From assembly GCA_963789955.1 (NCBI GenBank), contig CAWBMV010000034.1:864001-928000 (forward strand): DNA of 64,000 bases. Reading direction: 5' to 3'. Both the position numbers and the translations under genes were made by a program. This stretch comes from an uncultured Candidatus Rokubacteria bacterium (GTDB lineage Bacteria; Methylomirabilota; Methylomirabilia; Rokubacteriales; CSP1-6). The notes below the pieces were generated by a model. That model searched no databases, was not told where the DNA came from, and saw only the letters and a list, made by a program, of their open reading frames with translations. Shown here piece by piece: positions 3,716-62,448 of this stretch. Each line of letters starts with the position of its first letter. Position 1 is the stretch's first letter.

Positions 3716-5206
3716 ATGAGCTTCGTCGACATGCGCGAGTGGATCGCACGGCTCGACAAGGAAGGCGAGCTACGACGCATCACCGCCGAGGTGAGCTGGG
3801 ACCGGGAGCTCGGCGCCATCGCGCGCCGGGTGCTGGAGAAGAAAGGGCCGGCGCTGCTCTTCGAGCGCATCAAGGGCTACGAGACCGGGCGCTGTACGAA
3901 GGTCTTCGTGAGCGGACTCGGCAGTGTCGGGCGGCTGGCGCTGTCGCTGGGCTTCCCCAAGGATGCGTCGAATCGCGACCTGGTTCAGCACGTCATGAAG
4001 CTGAATCGTCAGACCATCGCCCCGACGATCGTCGCGACCGGGCCCGTCAAGGACGTCGTCGTCCGCGGCAAGGACGTCGACCAGACCGAGTTTCCGGTCC
4101 CGAAGTGGCACTACCTCGAAGGCGGACGCTACATCCACACGTTCTCCGGCGTCGTGACGCGCGACCCGGAGACGCGCGCGATGAACGTCGGCATCTATCG
4201 CGGCATGATCGGCAAGAAGAACACCGCGCCGTTCCTGCTCATCAAGGGCGGCCAGCACTGGGGCCAGCACTTCTTGAAATACTCCGCCCGCGGCGAGCCG
4301 ATGCCCGTCGCCTGCGTCATCGGCTGGGACCCGATCATGCCGTTCCTGGCGGGCTCGCCGATCCCGACCGGCGTGTGCGAATGGGATGTGATGGGCGCCT
4401 ATCGCGGCGAGCCTGCCGAGCTGGTCCGCTGCGAGACCGTCGACCTCGAGGTTCCGGCCAGCGCCGAGATCGTGATCGAGGGGTTCATCAGCGACGATCC
4501 GGCGACGTACGAGTCCGAGGGGCCGTTCGGCGAGTTCACCGGCTACGTCTCCGACGTGCCGACGCCGCGCCCCACGATGCAGGTGACGTGCATCACGCAC
4601 CGTCGCGATCCGATCTTCCGCGGCTGCCTCGAGGGCACGTTGCCCGGCTCGTACAGCGAGAACAGCGTGATGTCGTCCGTCCAGCGCGCGGCGATCGCGT
4701 GGAACATCCTGACGGCCGCCGGGATTCCCGGGGTGCGCGACGTGTTCGTGCCGCCGATCACGAACGGCGTGAACATCGTGGTCCAGATCAAGAAGGCCTA
4801 TCAGGGTCAGCCCAAGCAGATCGCGGCCGCGCTGTGGGGCTCCAGCGCCGCGCAGTACCGCTACAAGAACGTCACCGTCGTCGAGGAGGATATCGATCCG
4901 GCCTCGTACGAGCAGGTCGACTGGGCGTTCGCGCATCGGGTCAACGCCGGCGAGGACGGCCTCGTCATCTTCCCGGGTATCTTCGGCTCGCCGATCGACC
5001 CGAGCACCCCGCCCGAGGATCGCGACGTCGCGCGGCTCGGCACCGGGCTCTGGAATCGCGTCCTGATCGACGCCACGCGCTCATGGAAGCTCGAGCGCCG
5101 CGCCGAGTGGGGCGGCGAACGCTTCCCGCCCACGGTGCGCCCGGCGGCGGAGGACGAGGCGAAGGTGCGGGCGCGCTGGGAAGAGCTCGGGCTCGGCGAC
5201 CTCTGA
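3716..5206 (+). CDS. UbiD family (prFMN-dependent) decarboxylase
   Basis: DMREWIARLDKEGEL N-terminus, NVGIYR, VPASAEIVIEG, EGPFGEFTGY; AAGGAGG RBS. Confidence 0.92.
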   Translation: MSFVDMREWIARLDKEGELRRITAEVSWDRELGAIARRVLEKKGPALLFERIKGYETGRCTKVFVSGLGSVGRLALSLGFPKDASNRDLVQHVMKLNRQTIAPTIVATGPVKDVVVRGKDVDQTEFPVPKWHYLEGGRYIHTFSGVVTRDPETRAMNVGIYRGMIGKKNTAPFLLIKGGQHWGQHFLKYSARGEPMPVACVIGWDPIMPFLAGSPIPTGVCEWDVMGAYRGEPAELVRCETVDLEVPASAEIVIEGFISDDPATYESEGPFGEFTGYVSDVPTPRPTMQVTCITHRRDPIFRGCLEGTLPGSYSENSVMSSVQRAAIAWNILTAAGIPGVRDVFVPPITNGVNIVVQIKKAYQGQPKQIAAALWGSSAAQYRYKNVTVVEEDIDPASYEQVDWAFAHRVNAGEDGLVIFPGIFGSPIDPSTPPEDRDVARLGTGLWNRVLIDATRSWKLERRAEWGGERFPPTVRPAAEDEAKVRARWEELGLGDL

Positions 5207-20734: not shown

Positions 20735-21562
20735 TTACCCCCTTGTCCGACGATCGCAGCGGGCCAGGAACTCGAGCACGGCACGGTTCCAGGCCTCGGG
20801 CTGGTCACGGTTGGCGAAGTGGCTCGCCGGCGAGAGCACCACCAGCTTCGAGCCGCGAACCTTTCTGTGCATCACCCTCATCGGCGCCAGGGAGGGGTCG
20901 CGGTCGCCGCCGATGAGCAGCACCGGCATCCGCAGGCGCGGCAGCTGATCGGTGATGTGGTCCATCGCGAGCAGCGCCCGCAGGGAGTTCGCGTACCCTA
21001 TCGGTGAGAGCCGGCGGTACTCCTCGTAGAACTCATCCCTGGCCGAGGGGTCGAGGGCCAGCCGCTCCGAGAGGTTCGGGTTGGCGGCCATCGCGTACTC
21101 CGCCATGGCGTCCATTCCCTTCGTGAGCGTGATCTCGATCGAGCGCGCGCGCATCACGAGATTCTCGACGGAGAGCGGCAGCCCGGCGGCGGACGACGAG
21201 TTGGTCACCATCAGCGCCCGGACGCGCGACGGAAAGCGCAGCGCGAAGCGGGTGGCGATCCCGGCGCCCAGCGAGAGCCCGCCGACGTGCGCCTTCCGGA
21301 TCCCGAGGTGGTCGAGCACCGTCTTTAGGTCCAGCGCCCAGCGCCCGAACGAGAACTTGGCGGCGTCTTCCGGACTGTCGGACCGCGCGTGGCCGCGCGG
21401 CTCCCAGAGCACCAGCCGGTGGTGGGCCGCGAGGGCGTCGCGGTTCACGTCCCACATGTCGGCGTTGCCACCGATCCCGTAGGCGAGCACCAGAGGGGTG
21501 CCCCGGCGGCCGTGCTCCTCGTAGTAGAGCCGCACCCGGTCGTCGGTCCTGGCGAATGGCAC
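20735..21562 (-). CDS. Alpha/beta hydrolase (enol-lactonase-like)
   Basis: RGHARSDSP, GLSLGA nucleophile elbow, GGDRD, SHFAN; divergent from the aromatic cluster. Confidence 0.85.
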   Translation of the reverse strand: MPFARTDDRVRLYYEEHGRRGTPLVLAYGIGGNADMWDVNRDALAAHHRLVLWEPRGHARSDSPEDAAKFSFGRWALDLKTVLDHLGIRKAHVGGLSLGAGIATRFALRFPSRVRALMVTNSSSAAGLPLSVENLVMRARSIEITLTKGMDAMAEYAMAANPNLSERLALDPSARDEFYEEYRRLSPIGYANSLRALLAMDHITDQLPRLRMPVLLIGGDRDPSLAPMRVMHRKVRGSKLVVLSPASHFANRDQPEAWNRAVLEFLARCDRRTRG

Positions 21563-21608
21563 GGGGGTATCTTAGCCGCCCGCGGTTTCGTGGCCCAAGG
21601 TTTCGCAC

Positions 21609-21638
21609 TTGACACGGATTCGGGCAATTCAGTATTTT
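21609..21638 (+). promoter_or_regulatory. Sigma-70-type promoter of the hcr/box operon
   Basis: TTGACA-18 nt-TATTTT in an AT-rich intergenic stretch, about 50 bp upstream of the 2Fe-2S gene. Confidence 0.6.
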
Positions 21639-21688
21639 TAAAGCGTCCTTAAGTCCCAGTAAATCGTCTCAGCGCCGGTGGAGCCCCA

Positions 21689-22174
21689 ATGAAGGTGCGC
21701 GTCACCTTGAACGTCAACGGCGAGTCGCGCGAGGCGCTCGTGCCGACCCACAAGACTCTGCTCGAAGTGCTTCGGGAAGATCTCGGGCTCACCGGGACCA
21801 AGCACGGCTGCGAGCTCGGCGAATGCGGCACGTGCACCGTGCTCGTCGACGGCGAGCCGGTGCTGTCGTGCCTGGCGCTTCCGGTCGAGACCGAGGGCCG
21901 CCGGATCACGACGGTGGAGGGGATGGCGGAGGGCGGGCGCCTGCATCCGCTTCAGCAAGCCTTCGCCGAGCTGGGCGCCGCGCAGTGCGGATACTGCACG
22001 CCCGGCATCTTATTGACGGCCACCGCCCTCCTCGCGGAGCGGCCCAGCCCGACACGGCAGGAGGTCAAGGAGGCGCTGGCCGGCAACCTCTGCCGCTGCA
22101 CCGGCTACACGAAGATCCTCGACGCCGTCGAGCTCGCGGCCCTGCGGATGGGACGCCAGGAGGCCCGTACATGA
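21689..22174 (+). CDS. hcrC: Xanthine-dehydrogenase-family 2Fe-2S subunit (4-hydroxybenzoyl-CoA reductase gamma-like)
   Basis: GTKHGCELGECGTCTV...LSCL, QCGYCTPG, NLCRCTGY. Confidence 0.85.
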   Translation: MKVRVTLNVNGESREALVPTHKTLLEVLREDLGLTGTKHGCELGECGTCTVLVDGEPVLSCLALPVETEGRRITTVEGMAEGGRLHPLQQAFAELGAAQCGYCTPGILLTATALLAERPSPTRQEVKEALAGNLCRCTGYTKILDAVELAALRMGRQEART

Positions 22175-24626
22175 CCAAGAACGAGTTCGCGGTCATCGGC
22201 CGGCCGCTCCCGAAAGTCGATGCGTGGGCGAAGGTCGTCGGCGAGACGAAATACGCCGACGATCTCTTCCTGCCGCGCATGGCGTACGCCAAGCTCCTCC
22301 GCAGCTCCCACGCCCACGCCCGCATCAAATCCATCGACACCACGCGTGCCCGCGCTCTGCCCGGCGTGTTCGCGGTCGTCACGGCCGAGGACTTGCCCCG
22401 GGTGAAGTTCGGCATCTTGCCGGTGTCGCAGGACGAAGAGGCGCTCTGCGCGGAGAAGGTCCGCATGGTCGGCGATCCGGTCGCCGCGGTCGCGGCGGTG
22501 GACGAGGAGACCGCCGAGCAGGCGTGCCGGCTGATCGAGGTCGACTACGAGCCGTTGCCGGCGCTCATGTCGATCTTCGACTCGCTCGCGCATCCCGAAG
22601 TCCGCATCCACGACTACGGCGACGGCCCGAACGTCCACAAGAACGTCGCACTCCAGTTCGGCGACGTGGACGCGGCGCTCGACGGCGCCCATCTGGTGCG
22701 CGAGGACGTGTTCTTCTTCGAGGGCAACACTCACCTGCCGATGGAGCAGCACGCCGCCGTCGCCCACTGGGCGGCCGACGGCAAGCTGACCCTCTGGTCC
22801 TCGACGCAGACACCGCACTACGTGCACCGGGTCCTCGCGAAGGTGCTCGACACGCCGGCCGCGCACATCCGGGTCGTCGCGACTCCGGTCGGCGGCGGCT
22901 TCGGCGGCAAGACGGATCCGTTCTCGCACGAGATCGTCGTCTGCCAGCTCTCGAAGCTGACGGGACGGCCGGTGAAGATCGCGCTGACGCGGGAAGAAGT
23001 CTTCTACACGCACCGTGGACGCCATCCCGTGCTCATGTGGATCAAGACCGGATTCACGAAGCAGGGTGACATCACCGGCTGCCACCTGCGGACCTGGCTC
23101 GATGGCGGCGCGTACGGCTCGTACGGCGTCGCGTCCACCTTCTATACCGGCGTGATCAATCCGGTCACCTACAAGATCCCCGTCTACAAGTTCGAGGGCG
23201 CGCGCATCTTCACCAACAAGCCGCCGTGCGGACCCAAGCGCGGCCACGGCACGGTCCAGCCCCGCTTCGCCCTCGAATGTCAGCTCGACAAGGCGGCCGA
23301 GCAGCTCGGGCTCGATCCCGCCGACATGCGGCGGCGGATCGTCGCCGAGCCGTTCACCAAGACGGCGAACCACCTGACGGTCACGACCATCGGTCTGGGC
23401 GAGTGCATCGACAAGGTCGTGGAAGCCTCCGGCTGGCGCGACAAGCGCGCCCGCTACGGCGTTTCGGCGAAGCCTGCGCCCGGGAAGCCCGCGGGAGCTC
23501 GTCTGCCAAGAAGCGCGGGCTGGGGATCGCCTGCTCGGCGTACCTCACCGGAGCCGGCACCGCGATCTACTGGAACGACATGCCCCACTCCGGCGTGATC
23601 GCCCGAGCCGATCGCAGCGGTGGTGTCAGCGTGCTGTGCGGCGCCACCGACATCGGCCAGGGCTCGGACTCGATCCTGGCCTATCTGACCGCGGAAGTCC
23701 TCGGCATCGAGCCGAAGGACATCCACGTGCAGCCGGCCGACACGACCCTGACGCCCGTCGATCTGGGCTCCTACTCGTCGCGCGTGACGCTGATGTGTGG
23801 CATGGCGGCGATCCAGGCCGCCCAGCGTCTCCGCGACGCCATCTTCAAGGCGGTGGCGCAGAAGCTCGAGGTGAGCCCGGCGGCCCTCGTGGCGCGCGAG
23901 CGCAAGATCGGCGTGCCCGACGACTGGGACCGCGCCGTGCCGTTCGCGCGAGGCGTGGAGCTCGGGGAGGCGCTACACGGTGTCCTCGCGTTTCCCGGCT
24001 CGTACGCGCCGCCCAAGCGCGCCGGCAAGTACAAGGGCGGAGGCGTCGGGCCGTCGCCGTGCTACTCGTATTCGGCGTGTGTCGTGGAGCTGACCGTCGA
24101 CGAAGAGACCGGCACCGTCGATCTCGAGAACGTGTGGATCGGCCACGACATCGGGCGCGCGCTGAATCCGCTCCTGGTCGAGGGACAGGTCGAGGGCTCG
24201 GTGTACATGGGGATCGGCGAAGCCTTGATGGAGGAGCAGGTGTTCAGGAAGAATCTCCACAAGCATCCGTCGATGCTCGAGTACAAGAGCCCGACTACGC
24301 TCGAGACGCCGGAGATCCACACGATTCTCGTCGAGACCGACGACCCCGAAGGGCCCTTCGGCGCCAAGGAAGCGGGCCAGGGCCCGCTCCTGCCGGTGAT
24401 CCCGGCGATCGCGAACGCCCTGCATCACGCGCTCGGCATCCGCATCGACGAGGTGCCGATCACCGCCGACAAGATCCTCAAGGCCCTCGATCTGAAGCGC
24501 GCGGGAAAGCCGGCGCGCGTCGGGCCGACGCGCCTGCCGCTGCTCACGTTCAAGCAGCCGCTCGCGGTCGAATCCGCATTCGGGCAGCCGGCCGACGCCA
24601 TCGTCTCCAGACCATTCGCGAAATGA
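22171..24626 (+). CDS. hcrA: Xanthine-dehydrogenase-family molybdopterin subunit (4-hydroxybenzoyl-CoA reductase alpha-like; frameshift near 23500)
   Basis: HAHARI, VGGGFGGK, GPKRGHG, DIGQGS, DLGSYSSRVT, VEGQVEG, GPFGAKEAGQG. Confidence 0.8.
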
Positions 24627-24776
24627 AGATACGTCCCGCAAAACCGCCACGCGCGAGATCGGGCGAGGGAAGTGCGGTTCCGAAAGGATCGGGCGTGCGG
24701 AGCTTCGCCACGTCTGTCTCAGGCCACCCTCGGTCCAAGCCGGCCTCACGGTCCCCGCTACAATGAGCTTCGCCGC

Positions 24777-25795
24777 GTGATTCGCCTACCGCCATTTACC
24801 TACCTCGCGCCCACGACGGTGGACGCAGCGGCGCGATTGATGGCCGAGCATGGACGTGATGCGATGCTCGTCGCCGGCGGGACCGACCTCTACCCGAACA
24901 TGAAGCGGCGGCAGTTCGAGCCAAAGGTGCTCGTCGCGCTGCGAGGTCTGCGCGAGCTGCGCGGGAGTCCGCGGCTCCGCCGCCGGCGGCTTCAAAATCG
25001 GCGCCGGGACGACCCTCTCGGCGGTCGCCGCCCACCGCGATATCATGCGCGAGTGGCCGGCACTCGCGACGGCGGCCGGACTTGTCTCCTCGCCTCAGCT
25101 TCGGAACATGGGTACCATCGGGGGCAACGTCTGTGTCGACACCCGGTGCAACTATTACAATCAGTCGCACGAGTGGCGTAAGGCCATCGGCTTCTGCATG
25201 AAAAAAGACGGCGATATCTGTCTGGTGGCGCCCGGGAGCTCCCGGTGCTGGGCCGTGTCCTCCTCGGACACCGCGCCCGTTCTGTGGGCACTCGGGGCGA
25301 AGCTCCGACTCGTCGGCGCCGACGGCGAGCGCACGGTACCGATGGGTGCGCTCTACCAGGACGATGGGATCGAATACCTCGCCAAGCGCCCTGACGAGAT
25401 CGTCGCGGACATCCAGCTGCCTCCCGCCGAGGGCTGGCGCTCGGCGTACCTCAAGCTGCGGCGCCGGGGCTCGTTCGATTTCCCGGTGCTCGGGCGTGGC
25501 GGTGGCCGCCAGGATGGAAGGCGACGTCGTCCGCGAGGCCCGGATCGTGCTCGGAGCCGTCGCCTCCCAGCCGCGGCCGGCGGACCGGGCTGCCGCGGCG
25601 CTCGTCGGCCAGCGGGTGACGCGCGAGCTGATCGCACAGGTCGCGGACCTGGCAGCCGGACCCTCGAAGCCGCTGGACAACACCGATTTCAGTCACCCCT
25701 ACCGCAAGAAAGTCACTCGAGTCTTCGTCGCGCGGGCCCTCGCCGCGGTGGCCGGGCTCGACGACATCGGCGCCACATCGGAGGAGGTCGCGTGA
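24777..25795 (+). CDS. hcrB: FAD subunit with a [4Fe-4S] insertion (4-hydroxybenzoyl-CoA reductase beta-like; frameshifts near 24970 and 25492)
   Basis: AGGTDL, LRNMGTIGGN, insertion RC-x15-C-x7-C-x8-C, YLKLRRRGSFDFP. Confidence 0.82.
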
Positions 25796-26340
25796 CCGCA
25801 CTGGGTGAGCGCATCAAGCGCCTGCGCGGGGAGCGCGAGCTCCAGCAGCGCCAGCTCGCGGAGAAGGCCGGTCTCACCCCGAGCATGGTCTCGCAGATCG
25901 AGTCGGGCCGGCTGTCGCCCTCGCTCCACACGCTGGGCAAGATCGCTTCGGCGTTCGGGGTGCCGATCGCGGCGCTGTTCGACGGCAAGCCGGCCGGCAG
26001 CATCGTCATCTCGCACAAGCGCGACTACCCGGTCGTGTCGTTCGATGGCTCCTCGGAGCGATGGGCCGTCCTCGGCGCCGGGCTGTTCCAGGGGAAGATC
26101 CGCGCGGTGGTCTCGACCCTCGGGCCGAAGTCACGCGGCTTCACGACCGAGAAGGTCATCATCAAGCCGGGCCAGCAGAAGCTCTTCTACGTGCTCGAGG
26201 GCAAGGTCGCGCTCCACTACGACGGCGATCGCCACCTGCTCGAGGCGGGCGACAGCGCGCTCCTCGACGGCGGCGTGGCCCACGGGTGGGAAAATCTCGG
26301 CGGCAAGCAGGCCCAGGCGCTCTGGGTCATTCTGGGATAG
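25792..26340 (+). CDS. XRE-family HTH-cupin transcriptional regulator
   Basis: LGERIKRLR...LAEKAGLTPSMVSQIESG HTH; cupin YVLEG...LEAGDS...HGWEN; GAGGAGG RBS. Confidence 0.88.
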   Translation: MTALGERIKRLRGERELQQRQLAEKAGLTPSMVSQIESGRLSPSLHTLGKIASAFGVPIAALFDGKPAGSIVISHKRDYPVVSFDGSSERWAVLGAGLFQGKIRAVVSTLGPKSRGFTTEKVIIKPGQQKLFYVLEGKVALHYDGDRHLLEAGDSALLDGGVAHGWENLGGKQAQALWVILG

Positions 26341-26346
26341 GCGCCG

Positions 26347-28020
26347 ATGGCCGACACGGGTGAGCGCGTGCTGGTCGACTTCAGGACCGAGCCGGCGAAG
26401 TACCGGCACTGGAAGCTCACGTTCAACGGTCCCGTGGCCACGCTCGCGATGGACGTCAAGGAAGACGGCGGCCTGCGGCCGGGCTACGAGCTGAAGCTCA
26501 ATTCCTACGATCTCGGCGTGGACGTCGAGCTCTACGACGCGATCCAGCGCCTGCGTTTCGAGCATCCCGAGGTGGGCGCGGTGGTCGTCACCTCCGGCAA
26601 GGAGCGCGTGTTCTGCGCCGGCGCCAACATCCGCATGCTCTCGCAATCGGCCCACGGCTGGAAGGTGAACTTCTGCAAGTTCACCAACGAGACCCGCAAT
26701 GCCATCGAGGAGGCGACGGGAGAGTCCCGCCAGTTCTATCTCTGCGCCGTCAACGGTCCGTGCGCGGGGGGCGGCTACGAGCTCGCGCTGGCGACCGACT
26801 GGATCGTGATGGCCGACGACGGCAACACGGCCGTGTCGCTTCCGGAGGTTCCGCTGCTCGCGGTGCTCCCCGGCACCGGTGGGCTCACGCGGCTCGTCGA
26901 CAAACGCCGGGTCCGTCGCGATCGCGCCGACTTCTTCTGCACGGTCGAGGAGGGGATCAAGGGCGCGCGCGCCGTCGAATGGGGCCTCGTGGACGAGGTC
27001 GCGCCGCGCTCGAAGCTCGACGAGGTCGTGAAGCGTCGCGCCGCCGAGTTCGCGGCGCGCACCGATCGGCCGGCCGGAGCCCGAGGGATCGCGCTGGCTC
27101 CGCTCGAGCGCTCGATCGACGGCGACCGGATCCGCTATGGCCACGTCGTCTGCGAGATCGACCGCGCGCGCGGTCTTGCCGAGATCACGGTGAGCGGGCC
27201 GAGCGCGGCGCCGCCGACCAGCGCCGCCGGCGTCCACGAGGCCGGCGGCGCGTTCTGGCCGCTGGCCCTCGCGCGCGAGCTCGACGATCTGATCCTGCAC
27301 CTGCGCACGAACGAGGACGAGATCGGACTCTGGGTGCTCAGGACGTCGGGCCGCGCCGAGCTCGTCGAGGCGTACGATCGCCTGCTCGCGGCGCACCGCG
27401 AGGACTGGCTCGTGCGCGAGATCCGTCTCTATCTCAAGCGTACGTTCAAGCGGATCGAGGTCTCGTCGCGGTCGGTGTTCGCGCTCGTCGAGCCGGGCTC
27501 GTGCTTCGCGGGCACCTTGCTGGAGCTCGGGCTCGCGGCCGACCGGTCGTACATGCTCGACGGTGCGCGGCCGGGTGACACGACGCCGGCGGCGACGATC
27601 CGGCTCACGGAGATGAACTTCGGCGCGTATCCGATGGTCAACGGTCTCACGCGACTGGCGAGCCGCTTCCTCGCCGAGCCCGGACGAACCGACAAGCTCC
27701 GCGCGCGGATCGGCGAGGATCTGGACGCGGCCGCGGCCGCCGAGGCCGGGCTCGTCACCTTCACCCCCGACGACATCGACTGGGACGACGAGGTTCGCCT
27801 CGCGATCGAGGGGCGCGCGGCCTTCTCGCCCGACGCGCTCACGGGCATGGAGGCCTCGATCCGGTTCGGCGGACCCGAGACGCTCGAGAGCAAGATCTTC
27901 GGCCGGCTCTCGGCCTGGCAGAACTGGATCTTCCAGCGCGGCAACGCCGTCGGGCCCAAGGGCGCGCTCGAGGTCTACGGCACGGGACGTCGCAGCGAGT
28001 TCGATCGCAGGAGAGTGTGA
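26347..28020 (+). CDS. boxC: 2,3-epoxybenzoyl-CoA dihydrolase
   Basis: YRHWKL, LKLNSYDLGVDVEL, FCAGANI, KVNFCKFTNETRN, IFGRLSAWQNWIFQR. Confidence 0.96.
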   Translation: MADTGERVLVDFRTEPAKYRHWKLTFNGPVATLAMDVKEDGGLRPGYELKLNSYDLGVDVELYDAIQRLRFEHPEVGAVVVTSGKERVFCAGANIRMLSQSAHGWKVNFCKFTNETRNAIEEATGESRQFYLCAVNGPCAGGGYELALATDWIVMADDGNTAVSLPEVPLLAVLPGTGGLTRLVDKRRVRRDRADFFCTVEEGIKGARAVEWGLVDEVAPRSKLDEVVKRRAAEFAARTDRPAGARGIALAPLERSIDGDRIRYGHVVCEIDRARGLAEITVSGPSAAPPTSAAGVHEAGGAFWPLALARELDDLILHLRTNEDEIGLWVLRTSGRAELVEAYDRLLAAHREDWLVREIRLYLKRTFKRIEVSSRSVFALVEPGSCFAGTLLELGLAADRSYMLDGARPGDTTPAATIRLTEMNFGAYPMVNGLTRLASRFLAEPGRTDKLRARIGEDLDAAAAAEAGLVTFTPDDIDWDDEVRLAIEGRAAFSPDALTGMEASIRFGGPETLESKIFGRLSAWQNWIFQRGNAVGPKGALEVYGTGRRSEFDRRRV

Positions 28021-29437
28021 TGGCCGGCATCGACTACAGCGAGCGCATCCCGAACAACGTCAACCTCGCCGACAACCGTCGGCTCCAGCGCGCGCTCGAA
28101 GAGTGGCATCCGAAGTTCCTCGACTGGTGGATGCAGATGGGCCCGGACGGTTTCCAGGCGAAGGACGTCTATCTCAGGACCGCCGTCAGCGTCGACGCTC
28201 AGGGCTGGGCCCAGTTCGACTACGTCAAGATGCCGGACTATCGCTGGGGCTTGTTTCTCGCCGAGCCCGAGCCCGGCCGCACGATCGGCTTCGGCGACCA
28301 CATGGGCGCGCCCGCCTGGCAGGACGTGCCGGGCGAATATCGCGGCGTGCTCCGCCGGCTGATCGTCACCCAGGGCGATACGGAGCCGGCCTCGGTCGAG
28401 CAGCAGCGTCATCTCGGTCGAACCTGCCCGTCGCTCTACGACCTGCGCAACCTGTTCCAGATCAACGTCGAGGAGGGTCGCCATCTGTGGGCGATGGTCT
28501 ACCTGCTCGACGCCTACTTCGGACGCGACGGGCGCGAGGAGTCCGAGGCGCTGCTGCAGCGCCGCTCGGGCGATCGGGACAAGCCGCGCATCCTCGGCGC
28601 CTTCAACGAGAAGACGCCGGACTGGCTCTCGTACCTGATGTTCACGTACTTCACGGACCGCGACGGCAAGTACCAGCTCGCGAGCCTCGCCGAGAGCGGG
28701 TTCGATCCACTGTCGCGGACCTGCCGCTTCATGCTCACCGAAGAAGCGCATCATCTGTTCGTCGGCGAGACGGGCATCGGGCGCGTCGTCCAGCGCACGT
28801 GCGAGCTGATGCGCGAGGGCAAGACCGACGACGTCCGCCGGCTGGCGCCATCGACCTCGCGACCCTGCAGCGCTACATCAACTTCCACTACTCGGTGTCG
28901 CTCGACCTGTTCGGGTCGGAGATCTCGACCAACGCCGCGAACTTCTACACGATGGGGCTCAAGGGGCGCTTCGAGGAGGGAAAGAAGCGTGACGATCACC
29001 GGTTGAAGGACACGACCTACTCGATCAGCGAGCTGATCGGCGATCGGGTGACGAGCCGCGAGGCGCCGGCGCTGCCGTCACTCAACGAGCGGCTGCGCGA
29101 CGACTACATCGCCGATTGCCAGCGCGGGCTCGACCGCTGGAACCAGATCATCAAGAAGCACGAGATCGATCAGGAGCTCTCGCTGCCCCACCGGGGGTTC
29201 CACCGGGCCATCGGGCTCTTCGCGGAGGTCAAGGTGGCGCCCGACGGCCGCGTGCTCAGCGAGGCCGAGTGGGATGCGCGCAAGCACGAATGGCTCCCGA
29301 CCGAGTCGGATCAGGCCTACGTCGAGAGCCTCATGCAGCCGGTGACCGAGGTCGCCCGTTTCGCCAACTGGATCGCGCCCCCAGCGCGCGGCGTCAACGG
29401 CCGGCCCGTCGACTTCGAGTACGTCCGCCTCGCCTAG
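28020..29437 (+). CDS. boxB: Benzoyl-CoA 2,3-epoxidase diiron subunit (frameshift near 28845)
   Basis: IPNNVNL, QGDTEPASVEQQ, VEEGRH and TEEAHH diiron motifs, C-terminal DFEYVR. Confidence 0.96.
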
Positions 29438-29440
29438 CGC

Positions 29441-30991
29441 ATGAACGCGTCGGAGCTGCTGCCCCCGCAGTTCAACGCCGCGACGTGGTTCGTCGACCGC
29501 AACGTCGCCGAAGGCCGCGGGGCCGTGCCGGCGTTTCGCCACGAAGACACGACGCTCACCTACGCGGATGTTCTCGATCTGGTCAATCGAACGGGCAACA
29601 CGCTGCTCGAGATCGGCGTCGAGCCCGAGAATCGCGTGCTGATGCTGTGTCTGGACGCGCCCGAGTTCATCGGCACGTTCTGGGGCGCCATCAAGATCGG
29701 CGCGGTTCCGATTCCCACGAATACATTGATGCGCGCCGCGGACTATCTGTACTTCCTGAACGACAGCCGCGCCAAGGTGGCGGTCGTCTCGGCGCCGCTC
29801 CTGGCCGAGGCCGGGCCGGCGCTCGCGGAGGCCAAGTATCTCAAGCACGTGCTCGTGGCGGGCGGCGCGCCCGGGCGGTTCATGGCGTACGAGGACCGCG
29901 TCGCGAAGGCGTCGGCGAAGCTCGACGCGGCGATGACCTCGCGTGATGATCCCGCGTACTGGCAGTATTCGTCGGGCTCGACCGGCTTTCCGAAGGGCGC
30001 CGTACACCTGCAGCACGACATGGTGATCTGCTGCGAGACGTACGGTAAGCAAGTGCTCGGGATCCGCCCGACCGATCGCATCTTCTCCGCGGCCAAGCTC
30101 TTCTTCGCCTACGGGCTCGGCGCGACCGGCTTTCTCCCGATGAGCGTCGGGGCGCAGGCGATGCTCTATCCGCAGCGGCCGACGCCTGAGAGCGTGTTCG
30201 AGGCCATCACGCGCTACCGGCCGACCTTGTTCTTCGGGATTCCGACTCTCTTCGCCTCGATGCTCGCCGTGAAGGACGCGGAGAAGCGGTTCGACGCGTC
30301 CTCGCTCCGCCTGTGCGTGTCGGCCGGTGAGGCCCTTCCGGAAGAGCTCTACAACCGCTGGCGCGATCGCTTCGGCGTCGAGATCGTCGACGGCATCGGC
30401 ACCACGGAGATCGGCTACATCTTCATCTCGAATCGTCCCGGCCACACGCGCCCTGGGTCGACCGGCGTGGCGGTGCCGGGGTACGAGCTCGCCATCGTGG
30501 ACGACGACGGCCGCCCGGTGGAGCCCGGAGAGATCGGCAACATCCGCGTCAAGGGCGATTCGACGATGGCTTACTACTGGAACAAGCACGAGAAGACCAA
30601 AGACACCCTCTTCGGTCAGTGGATCCAGACCGGCGACAAGTACTACCAGGACAAGGACGGGTTCTACTGGTATTGCGGGCGCTCCGACGACATGCTCAAA
30701 GTCGGCGGCATCTGGGTCTCGCCGGTCGAGGTCGAGGGGACTCTGATCCGGCACGATGCGGTGCTCGAGGCGGCGGTGGTCGGGCGCGAAGACACGGATC
30801 GGCTCGTCAAGCCCCACGCCTACGTCGTGCTGAAGGATCCGGCGATCGCGTGCGACACGCTCGCCGACGAGCTCAAGCTCTTCGTGAAGGACAAGATCGC
30901 GCCCTACAAGTACCCGCGCTGGATCGAGTTCGTCACGGAGCTTCCGAAGACGGCAACCGGCAAGATCCAGCGCTTCAAGCTGCGGGCCTGA
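29441..30991 (+). CDS. bclA: Benzoate-CoA ligase family protein
   Basis: QFNAA, YSSGSTGFPKG, SAAKLFFAYGLG, DGIGTTE, APYKYPRWIEF. Confidence 0.92.
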   Translation: MNASELLPPQFNAATWFVDRNVAEGRGAVPAFRHEDTTLTYADVLDLVNRTGNTLLEIGVEPENRVLMLCLDAPEFIGTFWGAIKIGAVPIPTNTLMRAADYLYFLNDSRAKVAVVSAPLLAEAGPALAEAKYLKHVLVAGGAPGRFMAYEDRVAKASAKLDAAMTSRDDPAYWQYSSGSTGFPKGAVHLQHDMVICCETYGKQVLGIRPTDRIFSAAKLFFAYGLGATGFLPMSVGAQAMLYPQRPTPESVFEAITRYRPTLFFGIPTLFASMLAVKDAEKRFDASSLRLCVSAGEALPEELYNRWRDRFGVEIVDGIGTTEIGYIFISNRPGHTRPGSTGVAVPGYELAIVDDDGRPVEPGEIGNIRVKGDSTMAYYWNKHEKTKDTLFGQWIQTGDKYYQDKDGFYWYCGRSDDMLKVGGIWVSPVEVEGTLIRHDAVLEAAVVGREDTDRLVKPHAYVVLKDPAIACDTLADELKLFVKDKIAPYKYPRWIEFVTELPKTATGKIQRFKLRA

Positions 30992-31010
30992 GGCCCCGGC
31001 TCCCTCGACG

Positions 31011-32277
31011 GTGTTCGACCGCACGCTCGAGACGCTCGGGCCGGACTCGCTACGCGACCATCAGTGGCGCCGTGTTCGCGCGATGGCGGCGGAGCTGCTC
31101 GCGACCAACCGGTTCATCCACGCGCAAATGGCGCGCGGCGGGTCTCGCCTCGGTCGACGATCTCCGCGGCTGGGACGACTTCCGACGCATTCCGCTGACG
31201 AGCAAATCGGAGCTCGTCGCCGACCAGGCCGCGCATCCGCCGTTCGGGACGAATCTGACGTACGCGCTCGAACGCTACGTGCGCGTGCACCAGACGTCGG
31301 GAACGAGCGGCGCGCCGCTCCGCTGGCTCGACACGCAGGAGTCATGGGAGTGGTGGGCGCGCTGCTGGGGATTCGTACTGCGGGGCGCCGGTGTCGGTCC
31401 GGCCGATCGCGTCTTCTTCCCGTTCTCGTTCGGCCTGTTCATCGGATTCTGGGCGGGCTTCGAGGGCGCTCGGGCGCTGGGTGCTCTGGCGATCCCCGGG
31501 GGCGGCCAGGACTCTGCGACCCGACTGGCGTGGATGGAGGCCCTGGGCGCGACGGTGCTGGTTTGCACGCCGTCTTATGCCCTCCACCTGGTCGAGGTCG
31601 CCCGCGAGCGCGGCATCGACCTGGCGAGGCTGCCCGTGCGGACGACTGTGCACGCGGGTGAGCCGGGAGCCGGCATCCCGGCCGTCCGAGCCCGTATCGA
31701 AGCGGGCTGGAGAGCTCGCACGTTCGACCACGGGGGCATGACCGAGATGGGCGCCTACGGCTACGAGTGCGCCGAGCAGGCCGGCCTGCACGTCAACGAG
31801 TCGGAGTTCATTCTCGAGGTGATCGACCCGGTCACGGCGAGGCCGACGACGGACGGAGAGCTTGTCCTGACAAACCTTGGCCGGATCGGCTCACCGGTCA
31901 TCCGCTACCGGACCGGGGATCACGTCCGCCTGGCAGAGGGAATTTGCCGGTGCGGACGCACCTTCCGGCGCCTCGACGGCGGCATCCTCGGCCGGCTCGA
32001 CGACATGCTCATTGTCCGTGGGGTCAACGTGTTCCCGACCGCCATCGAGGGGGTCGTCAGGCGCTTCTCCGCCATCGAGGAGTTCCAGATCGAGGTCTTC
32101 AAGGACGGTGAGCTCGACGAGGTGCGGGTCCTGGTGGAGCTGGACGACGCCTCCGGTGTGTCACCGGTGCGCGAAGCTCTCCGGGCGACCCTCGGGATCA
32201 GGCTGGAAGTCGCCGCGGTCCCGGCCCGGAGCCTGCCGCGGTTCGACCTCAAGGCGCGGCGCGTCGTCAGAAGATAG
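31011..32277 (+). CDS. Phenylacetate-CoA ligase (PaaK)-family protein (frameshift near 31130)
   Basis: HQTSGTSG, CTPSYALHL, GEPG, GMTEMG, RYRTGD, GRLDDMLIVRGVNVFP. Confidence 0.88.
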
Positions 32278-32359
32278 CGCTGCCAAAAGCCGTTTTGAAA
32301 GGCGCGTAGTTTTGTCCACGCATCGGCTACTATTTTTAGTGCCCCTGTAGCGCCGCGGA

Positions 32360-34391
32360 ATGAACGAAAACGCGCACGGCGAAGGTAACGGTCCCCGGGC
32401 TACGCCCGAAGTGTCGCTCAGCGACACCATCACCATTTTCTTCAGCGATATCCGGGGCTTCACCGACACCACCGAGGAGCTGGGCGACGAGGTCGCCCAC
32501 GAGCTCGTGCGCGAGCAGGACGCCATCGTCAGGAGCCACATCGAGGCGTACGGCGGCGACGTCGTCAAGACTCAGGGCGACGGGTTCATGGTCGCCTTCA
32601 AGGCCACGCGAGGCGCGATCCTGTGTGCGATCGCGATCCAGAAGGCGATCGCCGCGAAGAACCGCGAGATCGCCGAGAAGAACCGCGACCGCCGAATCGC
32701 GATCGGCATCGGCATCAACACCGGCGAGCCGATCCGGCAGGAGGACGGCGACTACATCGGCGGCACGGTGAACCTGGCCGCGCGCATCTGCGCGACCGCC
32801 GGGCCGGGTCAGATCCTCGTCGCGGAGTCGACCCGTTACGTCGCCGGCCGTATCGAGCTGAGAAAAGTCGACGGCGGCGGCGTCGTGGAGTACGTCGATC
32901 GCGGACTCCAGCCGCTCAAGGGGTTTCCGGAGCCCAAGCGGCTCTTCGAGGTCACGTGGCTCCCGACGACGACGACGATCGGCGAGGAGCTGGCGACCGA
33001 GGCGGCCGCGCTGTCGACCGACGGGCCGGAGATCGCCGCGGTCAGAGCGGCGGTGCTGCGGGCGCTCAACGTGCTGACGCGCGTCCTCGGGATCAGCCAC
33101 CTGGACGATCCGGCGTTTCCGTCTCTTCTCGATTGTCAGGCGAAGGCCAGCGAGCTTCGCGTGGCGGTGTCCCGTGCCGGTAGCCAAGGGCGTAGCGCGA
33201 CCCAGGACAGGGTGCTCGATAGCATCAAGCCGTTCGAGAATCTGCTGACGCTCATGCTCGAGCGCGACACCTTGACCGACGAGCAATGGGCTCAGCTCGA
33301 CACCGCGGTCGCCCGGGTGTTCGGGCGCACGTTGGTGAATGCCGCCGCGCGCGGACGTCTCACGATTGCGATGGCCGAGAAACCGGCGGCGCCGGTCGTC
33401 GCGCCTGCGCCCGAGCCCGTCAGAGAGATCCCGAAAGAGCCGGAGCCGGCGCCGACCCCGAGGCCGGCCGCGGCTCCACGCAGCTCGGTCGCCGCCGCGC
33501 TCGCGCCGCCGCCGCTCGACGAGCGGGCCACCGTCGTTCGCTGGTGGGCCGCCGGATACGCGGCGTGGAGTCAGTGGAAGCCGTCGGGACTCGCCTGGGC
33601 CCACGCGCTGCGGGCGGAGCTGGGGCGATTCCCGTATCTCCTCAGCGTGCACATCCGGACTGCCGCGGATCACGACGACGGCCAGCTGGCCGGGGGATAC
33701 TTCCTCCTCCTCGAGCACGTCGAGAACCATGTCGCCGGGATTCATGCGCACGGTCTTCGACCGCGCGGTCGCTGACGTCGGGGTCGACCCTGAGCGGCTC
33801 GGCCGCAGGCTCTACGAGCTTCTGGTGGACGACGGCCGGCTGCGCGAGACCTACGCGTCGTTCGTGCGCGACGTCATCCAGGTCGCGGTCCCGACACCGG
33901 GGATGTGGGCCGATGCGGGAATCGTCGAGCACGATGATTCCACGACCCTGATCTCGCGGCCGACAGGCTCTATCGGTGATGGGCAGGAAGAATCGGTCCG
34001 GCTGACCGATCCCCACGATCGAGGGGCCGAGCGACGGTTCCTGGTGACCCTGGAGCCGCTGACGACCCGCTTCTTCTACGCCAAGAGCGGAAAGCTGCAG
34101 ACGCCTCGCGACGTCGACGTGCGGCTGACCGCGGGTGACGCGCCGTCGGATCGAGGCTGGTATCTGAGCGTGCGCGACAGCCTCAGCGGGCGATCGGATC
34201 CCAAGCTCATCCCGACCGCGGGCGTGACCATCCCGAACCTCGGCCGCGACAACTTCGGTGTGTGGGTGGCGGTTTTCAACCCTCACCCCGGCGAACGCGC
34301 GACGTACGAGCTGACGATGAGCATCAAGCAGCCTCGTCAGCAGGCCGCCGCTCGATCGATGTTCGCGCGTCCGGGCGGCCCGTCGCGGTGA
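32360..34391 (+). CDS. Class III adenylate cyclase with a long uncharacterised C-terminal region (frameshift near 33730)
   Basis: FSDIRGFT, VKTQGDG, GINTGE, DYIGGTVNLAAR; continues in the 33339..34391 frame. Confidence 0.82.
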
Positions 34392-51982: not shown

Positions 51983-52032
51983 TGTTCTCGTGCAAGCAGA
52001 CCGCCATGGCGGGATGATAGCGCCGATGGGGT

Positions 52033-52335
52033 TCAGGCTCGCTTCACGCTGACTTTCTCGTAAGACCCCCACAGCTTTACCTCAGTGACGCCAGGCTGAT
52101 TCACCCGCTGGACCCGTGCGTGCGTGGTCTTCCCACCCGCCGTCGTGTAGGGCCGTCCGACCACTTCCCACTCGCCAGTTGAGTCAGTGAGCCGATCGCC
52201 GATCTGGAGCTGCATGGGGAGGACACGAGTGGTGCCGGGCGGCTCGGGCGGTGGCATCCCAGGGAGCGGAGGCTGTGTGGGCTTCGGTACCGGCTTGGAC
52301 TTCTGGCGTTTCTTTTGGGGGCGCGGTCTAGCCAA
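52033..52335 (-). CDS. Small hypothetical protein, basic/Pro N-terminus plus a predicted SH3-like barrel
   Basis: RVLPMQLQIGDRL...GEWEVVGRPYTTAGGK...ARVQRV beta-rich pattern. Confidence 0.65.
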   Translation of the reverse strand: MARPRPQKKRQKSKPVPKPTQPPLPGMPPPEPPGTTRVLPMQLQIGDRLTDSTGEWEVVGRPYTTAGGKTTHARVQRVNQPGVTEVKLWGSYEKVSVKRA

Positions 52336-52759
52336 CCGAGTTTTCGTCTGCCAGCCTGCCGTCCATACGGTTGGCCTCGAGTGCTCGTGTCACCAGAGAG
52401 CCCAGCTCGTCGAGCTTGATCGGTTGAGGGATGAAGGCGAACGCGCCCATGGAAAGGCATCTCTCACTTGCTTGCTCAGCTGCTGAGGCAACAATCACGG
52501 GGAGTGAGCTATGGTGAACCCGCATCTGATGGAGAAAGCCCATGGCCTCCTCGTAACCCACCGGGGCGACCTTGCGTGTCCAACGGACTCGGAGGCTGAG
52601 AAGCAGAACCAAGTCAAAAGAGCGACGTGACAGTGTCGTCATCGCCTCGTCGCAGCACTCGACCGACGCAACCTCGTAATCACCGAGGTGACGGAGGTAG
52701 TCGCGCAGCATCGGGGCCATTCCTTCGCTTCCGACTAGCAAAACTTGCCGTCTAGCCAT
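52328..52759 (-). CDS. Atypical (pseudo-)receiver domain protein
   Basis: REC-like VLLV, FDLVLL, PVIVAS, GAFAFIPQP; lacks the phospho-Asp and the conserved Lys. Confidence 0.7.
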   Translation of the reverse strand: MARRQVLLVGSEGMAPMLRDYLRHLGDYEVASVECCDEAMTTLSRRSFDLVLLLSLRVRWTRKVAPVGYEEAMGFLHQMRVHHSSLPVIVASAAEQASERCLSMGAFAFIPQPIKLDELGSLVTRALEANRMDGRLADENSVG

Positions 52760-52903
52760 CCCGCACTCGCTTGTCTCAGTGCCCCCCGCCCGCTGCATCG
52801 CGTGCCCGGCACCACGTCTGCCGTCTCGTGGACGGCGGTCAGACGGTGCTCGGTGACCGTCACTGATAACTACATCGGAAGCGTGATAGCTCAGATGCTC
52901 TCA

Positions 52904-53155
52904 TCACACGAACCGCACGAGATAACCGCGCTCGATCGCCTCAGCAGCTACCGCGGCGACGATGGCGCTGCTGACGATGCGATCGCCGTTGGGTAGCGGC
53001 TCGGCGAGGAATTTTTCGGACCACACGTGCGCCTCGGGTGTCAGCGTGCGAAGGACAAAATTGGTGTCGTCCGTCGACTCGATCTCGAAGTGCGTGAGCC
53101 GCTGCTTGGTGAACAGTCCACGCAGGATGCGTTCGATCACCGGCTCTGCCAGCAC
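52904..53155 (-). CDS. Hypothetical protein
   Basis: 83-aa ORF with protein-like composition; no family recognised. Confidence 0.4.
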   Translation of the reverse strand: MLAEPVIERILRGLFTKQRLTHFEIESTDDTNFVLRTLTPEAHVWSEKFLAEPLPNGDRIVSSAIVAAVAAEAIERGYLVRFV

Positions 53156-53348
53156 GCCGTTCGGTACGCGATTCGGCCCATCATCGATTAGCGTAGCGTG
53201 ACTGGGCGTTCTCCGTACTCCGCAACGTTTGCAGAGTCATTCCGGAAGCCCAGCGCCGATCGAGGCGCAGCGGGTCCGCGGGCCGTGAGAGCGGTGGTTG
53301 TGGACGAACTCAGCTAAATCATTAAGGGGAGAGGACTTCACTCGATCA

Positions 53349-56300: not shown

Positions 56301-56693
56301 CGTGCCCTCGTACCGGTGCACGGCCTCCATCATCCGCTCGAGAACCGGATCGGTTATCTTGCGCGCTTCCTCGGGATCCCGATCGGCGAGCAGCTCCATC
56401 GAGCCCTCGAGGTCAGCGAAGAGGACCGTCACCTGCTTGCGCTCGCCTTCGAGCGCGCTCTTGGAGGTGAGGATCTTCTTGGCGAGGTGCTTCGGAGTGT
56501 AGGACTCGGGCGATGTAAATCGCGGTTCGGCTGTTGCCTGTGACGCGACGGGCTCCCCACACTCTAAGCAGAATTTCGCGCCAGCGGGCAGCTCGCTACG
56601 ACACTTCGTGCAGGTCAGCGCGACACGGGCTCCACACTCCAGGCAGAACTTCGCCTGGGGCGGATTCTCGTGCTGACACCGAGGACACTTCAT
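53349..56693 (-). CDS. Double zinc ribbon + class III nucleotide cyclase + STAND/AAA ATPase + TPR protein
   Basis: Four CxxC, LFADLEGS, MGDGIMALFG, GEPGVGKS, VVEDLHW, GNPLF, FKHGL, C-terminal TPRs. Confidence 0.93.
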   Translation of the reverse strand: MKCPRCQHENPPQAKFCLECGARVALTCTKCRSELPAGAKFCLECGEPVASQATAEPRFTSPESYTPKHLAKKILTSKSALEGERKQVTVLFADLEGSMELLADRDPEEARKITDPVLERMMEAVHRYEGTVNQVMGDGIMALFGAPLAHEDHAVRACYAALRMQESVKKYAEEVRRSHAVVIRIRVGLNSGEVVVRAIGSDLHMDYTAVGQITHLAARMEQLADPGTILLTPDTMALAESFVQVTALGPIAVKGLSASVEAYMLTGVSAVRSRLQAAATRGLSSFVGRGSEIDQLHRVLEHAGEGRGQVMAIGGEPGVGKSRLVFELTNSRRVEGWLVLEAGSVSYGKAVAYLPVVDLLKGYFGIDDRDTHQDIRGKITGKVLALDRDLGTITSAVLALLDVPVEDPQWLALEPGHRRRRMLDGLSRLLLRETQVQPVLLVVEDLHWIDSETQVFLDGLIERLPGARLLLLVTYRPEYRHEWGNRTYYAQVRLDALPPESVEALLDTFLGFDSSIRGLKNLLASRAEGNPLFLEESVRSLVETRALVGQRGAYQLAQPIEAVQMPATVQATLASRIDRLPPEQKRLLETAAVIGKDFPFALLQAITDETEEVLHLGLSHLHSAEFLHETAFLPELTYTFKHGLTHEVTYGTLLQDRRKALHARIVGVIERSYPDRLTEHVERLAYHALNGGLWPLALHYSRQSGSKAFERSANRETVAALEQALTALAHLPDDPEMLAAAIDVRLLMRSVLLQLGQLERTARYLKEAEVLALRLGDRQRLAWVWAYTTTALLFAGEPVPAMAVGEKARALADEVGDTGLRASARTPLAHACRERGDLRRSIAIFTEAIDLLTGDLARQRFGQAIPPAVYARGMAALCLAELGDFAEAERLGTEARVLTKAEDLPFGFAMAHMALCNIYLVQERVAEAMQILEPALEVIRVRGIPIPWATALRGYALALSGRPEEGCTVLAGGLEEADRLRFFFGHSQWVAWQAHAHLMAGRMDEAGEQADEALRLSRQRGQRGYEALALYVRGEIESLHERDSAETFCRQALGLADELGMRPLVAHCHLGLGKLYRRTGKREQAQEHLTTAKTMYREMGMTYWLEQAEAELRV

Positions 56694-56783
56694 CCAATCC
56701 CTCACGAGCCAGGTCGGTGACGGTCAGAACGGTGGGGCGAGACTAGACTGTTGCCTGCCCGATGGTCAAACAGATGCTGGTGG

Positions 56784-56979
56784 TTAGTTCAGCGACGCCG
56801 CCCGCAGCAGATCCAGTTCGGCATCCTCGGGCGTCACCCAGCGCTCAAACACCACGCCACACCGGTAGGCGACAGTGAGCAGATAGCCCATTCCATGCAG
56901 GCTCCGTGGCGTCGGCGGTCAGGGGGCCGTGGGGGCGATGATCGTGAACGAAGTCGTCGATTTCCGTGTGGAGGCTCAC
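56784..56979 (-). CDS. Tiny His/Cys protein (one-base frameshift near 56889; absent from the ORF track)
   Basis: Read by hand: SLHTEIDDFVHDHRPHGPLTADATEPAWNG/YLLTVAYRCGVVFERWVTPEDAELDLLRAASLN*. Confidence 0.55.
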
Positions 56980-57065
56980 GGGTTCATGAGAGCGACGCTC
57001 TTCCGATAGTCCGCCATTCGTTCCGGTCGCCCGTGCTCCTGCTCCCTCCGGGATTCCAAGCCGCT

Positions 57066-57422
57066 CTATCGAGGAGGAGCGGGCATCGCCGATGAGTGAT
57101 GGTCGACGATCATCCAGTTCTCGCCGTCACGAACGAAGGTGAAGCTATAGCGCGCTGCCAGAGTCTTGGTTTCCCCGTCCTTGATCCACGAGAACGTGTA
57201 GTAGCCGGTGTTGACAGCGGTGCCATCGTAAACGCGGATCAATTGCTCGCCGAACGTGACTTTGAGCCCCGGCAAAAACTTAAACGCTGTGACGAAATAG
57301 TCGCGCACCGCTGCTCGATCCGCTCGCACGGTTGGAGAGAGCGTCCCCCAGAGAACCCCATCAGTGGCATAGAGAAGAACAACTTTGTCAGGGTCGTTTT
57401 GCCCCAAGGTTTGGGCCCATTT
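57066..57422 (-). pseudogene. SgcJ/EcaC (NTF2-like, DUF4440) family protein lacking its N-terminus
   Basis: LYATDGVLWGTLS, VRDYF, NTGYYTF, ARYSF, WMIVDHHSSAMP; no start or signal peptide upstream. Confidence 0.75.
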
Positions 57423-58709: not shown

Positions 58710-58829
58710 GAATTCCTTCTTTCCAAGACTAGGGTCGCTGCAGTCTAGCAGACCTTTATCCTGTCCTTCTCGCATAGCGATTTTCAACCGCGATGTCTTG
58801 TCTCTCAACGTAACCGAGGCTGCGCAGCG

Positions 58830-58895: not shown

Positions 58896-58920
58896 TGCTG
58901 CTGACGCCAGTCACGCTCGC

Positions 58921-62447: not shown

Positions 62448-62448
62448 G

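Follow-up and report, generated by a model that had tools for sequence, protein, structure and literature searches.

An order-wide operon in Rokubacteriales joins an Hcr-like molybdenum enzyme with an altered catalytic site to a Box pathway without BoxA

We examined a 64-kb stretch of DNA (the window) from the assembly of an uncultured Candidatus Rokubacteria bacterium (6.77 Mb, 87% complete), in which eight genes in a run on the + strand (21689-32277) bring together two known systems. Three xanthine-oxidase-type subunits (2x[2Fe-2S], molybdenum and FAD) resembling 4-hydroxybenzoyl-CoA reductase (Hcr), here called the triad, stand upstream of boxC and boxB, which belong to the O2-requiring Box pathway. 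This arrangement is a real variant, found throughout the order and across phyla, and its catalytic site is altered. The operon appears to work most like an Hcr that feeds the Box pathway, and the triad is not a canonical Hcr member. The genes of the run were as follows.

21689..22174, +: HcrC-like 2x[2Fe-2S] subunit with Fer2 and Fer2_2 domains (TIGR03193, 193.2 bits, cut-off 257.8)
22171..24626, +: HcrA-like molybdopterin subunit, with a frame break at ~23496 and a Gln codon at 24378-24380
24777..25795, +: HcrB-like FAD subunit with a four-Cys [4Fe-4S] insertion, frame breaks at ~24967 and ~25495
25792..26340, +: XRE (HTH_3)-cupin regulator (Pfam)
26347..28020, +: BoxC (TIGR03222, 919.9 bits, cut-off 712.3, passed)
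28017..29437, +: BoxB, di-iron benzoyl-CoA 2,3-epoxidase, frame break at ~28844 (TIGR03225 passed)
29441..30991, +: benzoate-CoA-ligase-family enzyme (TIGR02262, 666.5 bits, cut-off 375.25), pocket motifs altered
31011..32277, +: PaaK-like CoA ligase, frame break at ~31118 (PaaK models under cut-off)

A reading made from the sequence alone had described eight co-oriented, mostly overlapping genes, and all of them were present, with most junctions formed by ATGA or GTGA overlaps and with best NCBIfam and Pfam families in agreement. A single conserved promoter-like site lies upstream, and the eight genes are presumably co-transcribed.

We surveyed conservation in 41 genomes of the order (our own and 40 relatives, with stretches from 39 of the relatives); NCBI labels its close homologues as Candidatus Rokuibacteriota. 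A boxB gene over the cut-off was detected in 34 of the 41 genomes and an hcrB-like gene in 39; one relative (G023) had neither gene and another (G028) had a short boxB and no triad. The triad was found directly 5' of box genes in 38 of the 40 relatives: the stretch included boxB in 34 of these (in a short, divergent form in 2), and the other 4 ran into a contig end within boxC. Because it recurs in 38 of 40 relatives, the hcr-box arrangement is core to the order and not a product of chance. The XRE-cupin gene was retained at the locus across the order, though relocated 3' of boxB in family f4, in which the PaaK-like ligase was also kept and the benzoate ligase was missing from the operon.

The absence of boxA from the window, which the sequence-only reading had pointed out, extended to the whole assembly, where neither a hidden Markov model (HMM) search nor tblastn with a real BoxA gave any match. 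The same model, validated by ten Gammaproteobacteria matches, detected boxA in none of the 41 genomes of the order. Likewise, boxD was found in none of the 41, and our own genome held generic aldehyde dehydrogenases only. A whole-genome check for boxA, bcr and bam genes had been proposed; for the reductases, tblastn gave no bcrB/C-like match in our own genome, only an unrelated activase gene, in a search that did not extend to the class II bam genes. The gene pobA was absent from all five genomes searched for it, our own included. Our own genome did carry korAB, a small 2x[4Fe-4S]-type ferredoxin, XdhC-like and MocA-like genes, and heme-copper oxidases.

We then aligned the large subunit to HcrA of Thauera aromatica (1RM6_A), the top PDB match for each half of the window protein. 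The catalytic glutamate of the xanthine oxidase family (Glu726 in Thauera HcrA) was replaced by glutamine, encoded by CAG, and thus the active-site Glu base of a xanthine-oxidase-type hydroxylase or aldehyde oxidoreductase is absent. The same glutamine was present in the loci of the relatives (38/38), and this is what is new here. One account describes the conserved glutamate as activating the Mo-oxido group and proposes that it donates the proton when the reaction runs in reverse (PMC10420851). A GTDB pattern scan for the Gln motif recovered at least 120 loci, of which 80 had flanking sequence; they came from Acidobacteriota, Gemmatimonadota, Planctomycetota, Chloroflexota, Myxococcota, Actinomycetota, Proteobacteria and others. 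Since the scan itself selected on the Gln motif, counting Gln within the resulting 61-sequence clade is partly circular; the non-circular counts were 38/38 order loci, 3/3 Gammaproteobacteria and 2/16 Myxococcota. The Myxococcota orthologues had glutamate in 14 of 16 readable motifs, and we rejected on this ground the idea that glutamine marks coupling to the Box pathway.

In a FastTree phylogeny of 94 large subunits (midpoint root; near-duplicates and most Rokubacterial rows omitted), the triad sequences formed a clade with support of 1.0, sister (0.98) under that root to a branch with the single canonical HcrA that passed the cut-off. The clade was split into a Myxococcota branch with glutamate (1.0) and a cross-phylum branch with glutamine (0.96), and glutamine also occupied the catalytic position in two more distant Hcr-like branches. 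Judged by this tree, the triad large subunits probably form a sister clade of Hcr that spans several phyla. In line with the earlier assignment of the triad as Hcr-like, TIGR03193, TIGR03194 and TIGR03195 (Hcr gamma, alpha and beta) were its best NCBIfam families and the genes had the C-A-B order, but intact orthologues remained under all three equivalog cut-offs (187.9/257.8, 823.5/994.55 and 282.7/404.55 bits, respectively; a canonical control scored 1274.2), and Glu726 was glutamine. The Hcr-type pocket and cofactor residues Q213, Y325, R357, H359, Y529, S530 and R532 were kept in 61/61 sequences. Position 249 was Asp in 61/61 (Glu in canonical HcrA) and His253 was present in 61/61; Ser322 and His253 are clade-specific invariant changes beside the Glu-to-Gln change. 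For the HcrB-like subunit, the top PDB match was 1RM6_B, with the four-Cys motif aligned and C123, C139, C147 and C156 present in 54/54 aligned sequences. This [4Fe-4S] insertion is the ferredoxin entry point in Thauera Hcr, though it also occurs in other aldehyde oxidases and hence is not unique.

We tabulated boxB, boxA and the triad across genomes beyond the order, as had been suggested from the sequence. The Gln-type triad genomes and the Myxococcota all lacked boxA, and the genome-level co-occurrence of triad and boxB was strong, but with many exceptions; replacement of BoxA by the triad withstood the first check proposed for it. The Gln-type set drew on the genomes of 50 of the 80 loci with flanks, 11 of them chosen for an adjacent boxB. 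Among these 50 genomes, 24 had a full boxB, 7 a match that was short or truncated, and 19 none, and boxA was absent from all 50. At the level of loci, 75 did not have the label Rokubacteria; boxB was found within 10 kb of the triad in 11 of them, including one (L100) that appears Rokubacterial by sequence. In the larger sets, scoring was limited to the top candidates of each genome. Among 151 Myxococcota (seed counted), 57 carried boxB and 46 an hcrB-like gene (41 both, 16 boxB only, 5 hcrB only), and boxA exceeded its cut-off in none; once the 5 hcrB matches that were weakest or lay off the clade were set aside, 39 of 41 hcrB genomes carried boxB. The triad of Myxococcota was unlinked to boxB and often scattered, and hcrB stood alone in 7 of 20 loci. 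The possibility that hcrB works without the molybdenum subunit was rejected, since hcrA was found elsewhere in 5 of 5 genomes checked.

In Gammaproteobacteria, boxB was detected in 19 of 350 scored genomes. A boxA gene was present in 10 of 351, each of which also carried boxB, and this served as a positive control. The triad clade was present in none of the 10 boxA-positive genomes and in 3 of the 9 boxA-less boxB-positive ones (one of them the seed), leaving 6 of 9 without the triad. Ten boxB-positive genomes lacking the triad were rechecked with hcrA and gave generic matches only, and genomes with boxB and neither triad nor BoxA included two near-closed chromosomes. Fisher tests of these co-occurrences overstate them, as kin genomes are not independent. 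In a BoxB tree rooted on the short BoxB proteins, the BoxA-bearing sequences formed two nested groups within BoxA-less diversity, and triad-less genomes were interspersed with triad-bearing ones. Among boxB-less triad carriers chosen as likely anaerobes, 4 of 5 had BcrB-like matches, all under the cut-off. A pairing of the triad with PaaABC in boxB-less carriers was rejected, as paaA was absent from 5 of 5 other large boxB-less triad genomes tested.

Gene neighbourhoods were labelled with a simple gene caller, by which some genes were mislabelled. The recurrent neighbours of the triad in the 80 flanked loci were TetR (13), MocA (9), PaaK-like ligase (8), XdhC (7), BoxR (7) and amidohydrolase (5), together with CoA transferase and UbiD. 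The PaaK-like ligase adjoined the triad in 6 of the 75 loci not labelled Rokubacteria. A hydroxyarylic-acid-type UbiD and a ligase accompanied it in L095 (Chloroflexales), and in L143 (Elusimicrobia), whose genome has no boxB, the triad stood in one run with benzoyl-CoA-reductase-like genes. Genes for 2-oxoacid:ferredoxin oxidoreductase adjoined the triad in two loci, and in L145 korAB lay between boxB and the triad. A [2Fe-2S] ferredoxin gene was located directly 3' of one boxB and a flavodoxin gene near another. No alternative reductase family recurred beside 40 boxB loci, and we thus rejected the replacement of BoxA by another such family encoded there.

The reading we favour, and to which we give about an even chance, is that a reductase driven by ferredoxin removes a substituent from the ring, likely a para-hydroxyl, and passes the resulting benzoyl-CoA to a ferredoxin-fed BoxB. 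A CoA ligase would first activate a substituted benzoate, with the PaaK-like enzyme as the candidate for activating the substrate of the molybdenum enzyme; the Hcr-like enzyme would then remove the substituent reductively with electrons from ferredoxin. BoxB and BoxC would epoxidise and then open the benzoyl-CoA ring using O2, with BoxB drawing its electrons from ferredoxin and not from BoxA. Since the glutamate is gone, the proton must have another source, for which the acid at position 249 (Asp) and His253 are candidates. In Thauera, the electrons for Hcr come from ferredoxin reduced by 2-oxoglutarate:ferredoxin oxidoreductase. The substrate, the direction of the molybdenum reaction and the electron donor in this scheme are what we infer from the gene content and its distribution.

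We favour this scheme because the triad probably belongs to a sister clade of Hcr, a ligase travels with it, it is paired with Box or Bcr-like genes, and each module occurs alone elsewhere. The asymmetry of presence in Myxococcota also fits, as 41 of 46 hcrB genomes have boxB and 41 of 57 boxB genomes have hcrB. Similarly, the neighbouring genes (PaaK-like ligase, UbiD, Bcr-like, KorAB and the MocA/XdhC maturation genes) fit an enzyme that acts on a substrate. Also in favour are the retained Hcr-type pocket residues and [4Fe-4S] cysteines, the korAB, ferredoxin and heme-copper oxidase genes of our own genome, its lack of pobA and bcrB/C, and the ferredoxin and flavodoxin genes close to two boxB genes. 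Dehydroxylation followed by epoxidation, as first suggested from the sequence, is therefore the best fit among the readings, yet it stays unproven, and glutamine in place of the glutamate speaks against a plain copy of Thauera chemistry. Several observations weigh against the scheme. The catalytic glutamate is glutamine in every order member with the locus, and all three triad subunits score under the Hcr cut-offs, at 44% identity to canonical HcrA. In the 19 of 50 triad genomes without boxB, five large ones also lacked paaA and no product outlet was identified. Away from Rokubacteria, 64 of 75 loci had no boxB within 10 kb, and most had no aromatic neighbours. The closest solved relative of the PaaK-like ligase uses an aliphatic acid, and a low-potential reductase inside an O2-requiring route would be chemically awkward.

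An unlikely alternative is that the triad supplies BoxB with electrons. It would oxidise a substrate at the molybdenum site, and two electrons would travel by way of [2Fe-2S], FAD and [4Fe-4S] and reach BoxB either directly or with ferredoxin as carrier. Its neatest substrate would be the BoxC product, 3,4-dehydroadipyl-CoA semialdehyde, so that BoxA and possibly BoxD would be replaced. This would explain why the order lacks both boxA and boxD (each 0/41, with boxB passing in 34/41) and agrees with the lack of boxA in the Gln-type genomes (0/50) and in Myxococcota (0/151), with the absence of the triad clade from the boxA-positive Gammaproteobacteria (0/10), with co-occurrence that persists when the genes are scattered, and with the lack of another recurrent reductase at boxB loci. 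Oxidative hydroxylation, however, requires the Glu base that is here glutamine, and a true boxD adjoins the box genes of Acidobacteriota and Myxococcota that carry the triad (L088, L243 and L250). The exclusion of triad and BoxA may also be a lineage effect, because BoxA was largely confined to Proteobacteria in our samples. As a general rule, the replacement of BoxA by the triad, the second possibility raised from the sequence, does not hold: boxB without BoxA or triad (16/57 Myxococcota and 6/9 Gammaproteobacteria, interspersed in the BoxB tree) and triad without boxB (19/50 genomes) both occur, and the triad is thus not an obligatory substitute for BoxA. Less probable again is the full form, in which the molybdenum enzyme replaces BoxA and BoxD together by oxidising the ring-cleavage semialdehyde-CoA and delivering the electrons through [4Fe-4S] into the di-iron epoxidase. 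If true, abundant uncultured soil phyla would run a self-sustaining, NADPH-free loop on a xanthine-oxidase-family site without its catalytic glutamate.

It is also rather improbable, though slightly less so than this full replacement, that the reductive sequence is the same and the leaving group is another one, namely amino, halogen or other, for instance from aminobenzoyl-CoA. The clade-specific invariants His253 and Ser322 that accompany the Glu-to-Gln change would suit such a substrate, and so would the RidA-family gene 3' of boxB in several f1 genera and the nitroreductase, amidohydrolase, amidase or PnbB genes that flank other loci. The top PDB match of the 29441..30991 ligase was anthranilate-CoA ligase, with benzoate-CoA ligases also among the best; although it passed its subfamily model, its pocket differs from other box-linked ligases in two motifs common to its close relatives. 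Nevertheless, the supporting neighbours are patchy and none is in the window operon, the Hcr-like pocket residues are otherwise kept, and we came across no characterised enzyme of such a type. Least probable of all is a molybdenum site that is catalytically dead or has an unrelated substrate, the triad being a co-regulated electron wire or passenger, as the loss of the catalytic glutamate and the many loci without aromatic neighbours might suggest. Against this, residues of the cofactor site and pocket do not vary across phyla, maturation genes adjoin (MocA 9/80, XdhC 7/80), the large subunit is kept in all five genomes checked with a stand-alone hcrB and the Myxococcota orthologues mostly retain glutamate.

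We also recorded features of the window outside the eight coding regions.

20735..21562, -: alpha/beta hydrolase, divergent flanking gene, PcaD-like under cut-off
21609..21663, +: sigma-70-like promoter with TTGACA at 21609 and two overlapping TT(C/T)A-N7-T(G/T/A)AA boxes
24679..24766, no strand: dispersed ~85-nt repeat in the hcrA-hcrB spacer, outside the pathway

The hydrolase adjoins the operon in family f1 relatives only. The promoter was the one promoter-like site in 21400-32500, where 0.6 would be expected by chance, which alone is not significant; the -35 box and the AT-rich boxes were, by eye, kept 5' of hcrC in most of the 33 relatives listed, and the TT(C/T)A-N7-T(G/T/A)AA boxes are a candidate operator for the XRE-cupin regulator. 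By shared words, the stretch may also occur in soil metagenomes and in five RNA runs (word shares of 0.20-0.31), matches that carry no weight as evidence here. The repeat had at least 49 further matches in the genome among those listed, some in tandem with ~100-nt spacing, and the hcrA-hcrB spacer ranged from 0 to ~240 nt in relatives. The five frame breaks of the window copy (one in hcrA, two in hcrB, one in boxB and one in the PaaK-like gene) are likely sequencing or assembly errors, because none was present in three relatives with 88-92% nucleotide identity, the operon genes of relatives are single open frames (except in G011, another few-contig assembly) and korB, elsewhere in our own genome, is likewise split. 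The first piece of BoxB alone scored 552.2 bits on TIGR03225 (cut-off 499.1), and its frame is intact in relatives. For the PaaK-like ligase, the top PDB match was 2-hydroxyisobutyryl-CoA synthetase and 'PaaK family' was the only Atlas label. A UbiD-family (de)carboxylase gene lies 16.5 kb upstream of the operon (3716-5203; 35% identity to the UbiD in L095), and our own genome has at least five UbiD-like genes. From 52000 to 64000 the GC content drops from ~0.69 to 0.61-0.65; the ORFs there are short and one gene encodes a large zinc-ribbon protein, which together suggest a variable region.

Other arrangements were observed at related loci. In some Rokubacteriales, Gemmatimonadota and Thermoanaerobaculia, boxB and boxC give way to a gene for a BoxB-like di-iron protein of only ~370 aa that scores below the BoxB cut-off and adjoins the triad or crotonases (L054:1997-3121, L055:767-1879, L056, L057, L262-L267); in L057 it adjoins benzoyl-CoA-reductase-like genes. 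Two Gammaproteobacteria loci (L099, L137) have a tungsten-type aldehyde:ferredoxin oxidoreductase and an amidase between boxC and the triad region, and the former is a candidate substitute for BoxD. In L147:9874-15890 (Thermodesulfobacteriota), two Hcr-like large subunits that differ at the catalytic position (Glu in one, Gln in the other) flank one hcrB/hcrC pair, followed by XdhC and MocA. Small, unrelated genes (nuclease-like, DUF4926 and ParA-like) lie between hcrA and hcrB in five Blastocatellia-like loci (L113, L117, L125, L138, L148). Finally, the cluster at L241 (G228:C1:5831500-5846500) looks biosynthetic: besides a BoxB-like gene that has diverged to 39% identity, it encodes a chorismate-binding/glutamine amidotransferase fusion, a large adenylation protein and an O-methyltransferase.

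Compared with known systems, the triad shares with HcrCAB of Thauera aromatica (1RM6/1SB3) the C-A-B order, the top PDB and NCBIfam matches, the four-Cys insertion and several pocket residues. It differs in the glutamine at Glu726, the scores under the equivalog cut-offs and the apparent sister-clade position, and its genome combines the operon with boxCB and heme-copper oxidases and has no benzoyl-CoA reductase (bcrB/C). HmfD of Cupriavidus basilensis is PaaK-like. As described, the HmfABCDE system of that species likewise has a predicted three-gene molybdenum dehydrogenase acting on a CoA thioester, its own CoA ligase and an aerobic host, but it carries out an oxidative furan hydroxylation without Box genes, and the likeness is by description and not by sequence (PMC3223595). 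With BoxABCD of Aromatoleum (Azoarcus) evansii and Burkholderiales, the locus shares BoxB, BoxC and an aryl-CoA ligase over the family cut-offs, but it has the XRE-cupin regulator and the triad in place of BoxA, BoxD and BoxR. BoxA is described as an NADPH-dependent reductase with FAD and 2x[4Fe-4S] (PMC4498308). The accessible portions of two accounts list the box clusters of SAR324 and Sedimenticola as boxB plus boxC with boxA unnamed, and for SAR324 report boxD as undetected and a '4-hydroxybenzoyl-CoA reductase' annotation in some bins; in those portions Hcr is not linked to box, and the electron donor and the Glu change are not discussed (PMC4782131, PMC4453571). In the literature outside subscription papers, we found no description of an Hcr-like/Box pairing or of the Gln clade, and to that extent the earlier statement that neither reading matches the textbook pathways holds.

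The operon likely marks an undescribed route for the breakdown of phenolic acids. In the samples examined, the Box pathway without BoxA was the common form outside Proteobacteria and the BoxA-bearing BoxB proteins were nested within it, and thus how the BoxB of Rokubacteria, Acidobacteriota, Myxococcota, Planctomycetota and others obtains its electrons becomes a testable question. A conserved clade of the xanthine oxidase family with glutamine for the catalytic glutamate also provides a natural test of the mechanism of molybdenum enzymes. If the favoured scheme of reductive dehydroxylation ahead of BoxB is true, abundant soil bacteria would degrade plant phenolic acids with O2 through an 'anaerobic' Birch-type step that bypasses protocatechuate, and '4-hydroxybenzoyl-CoA reductase' annotations in soil metagenomes would be no marker of anaerobic degradation.

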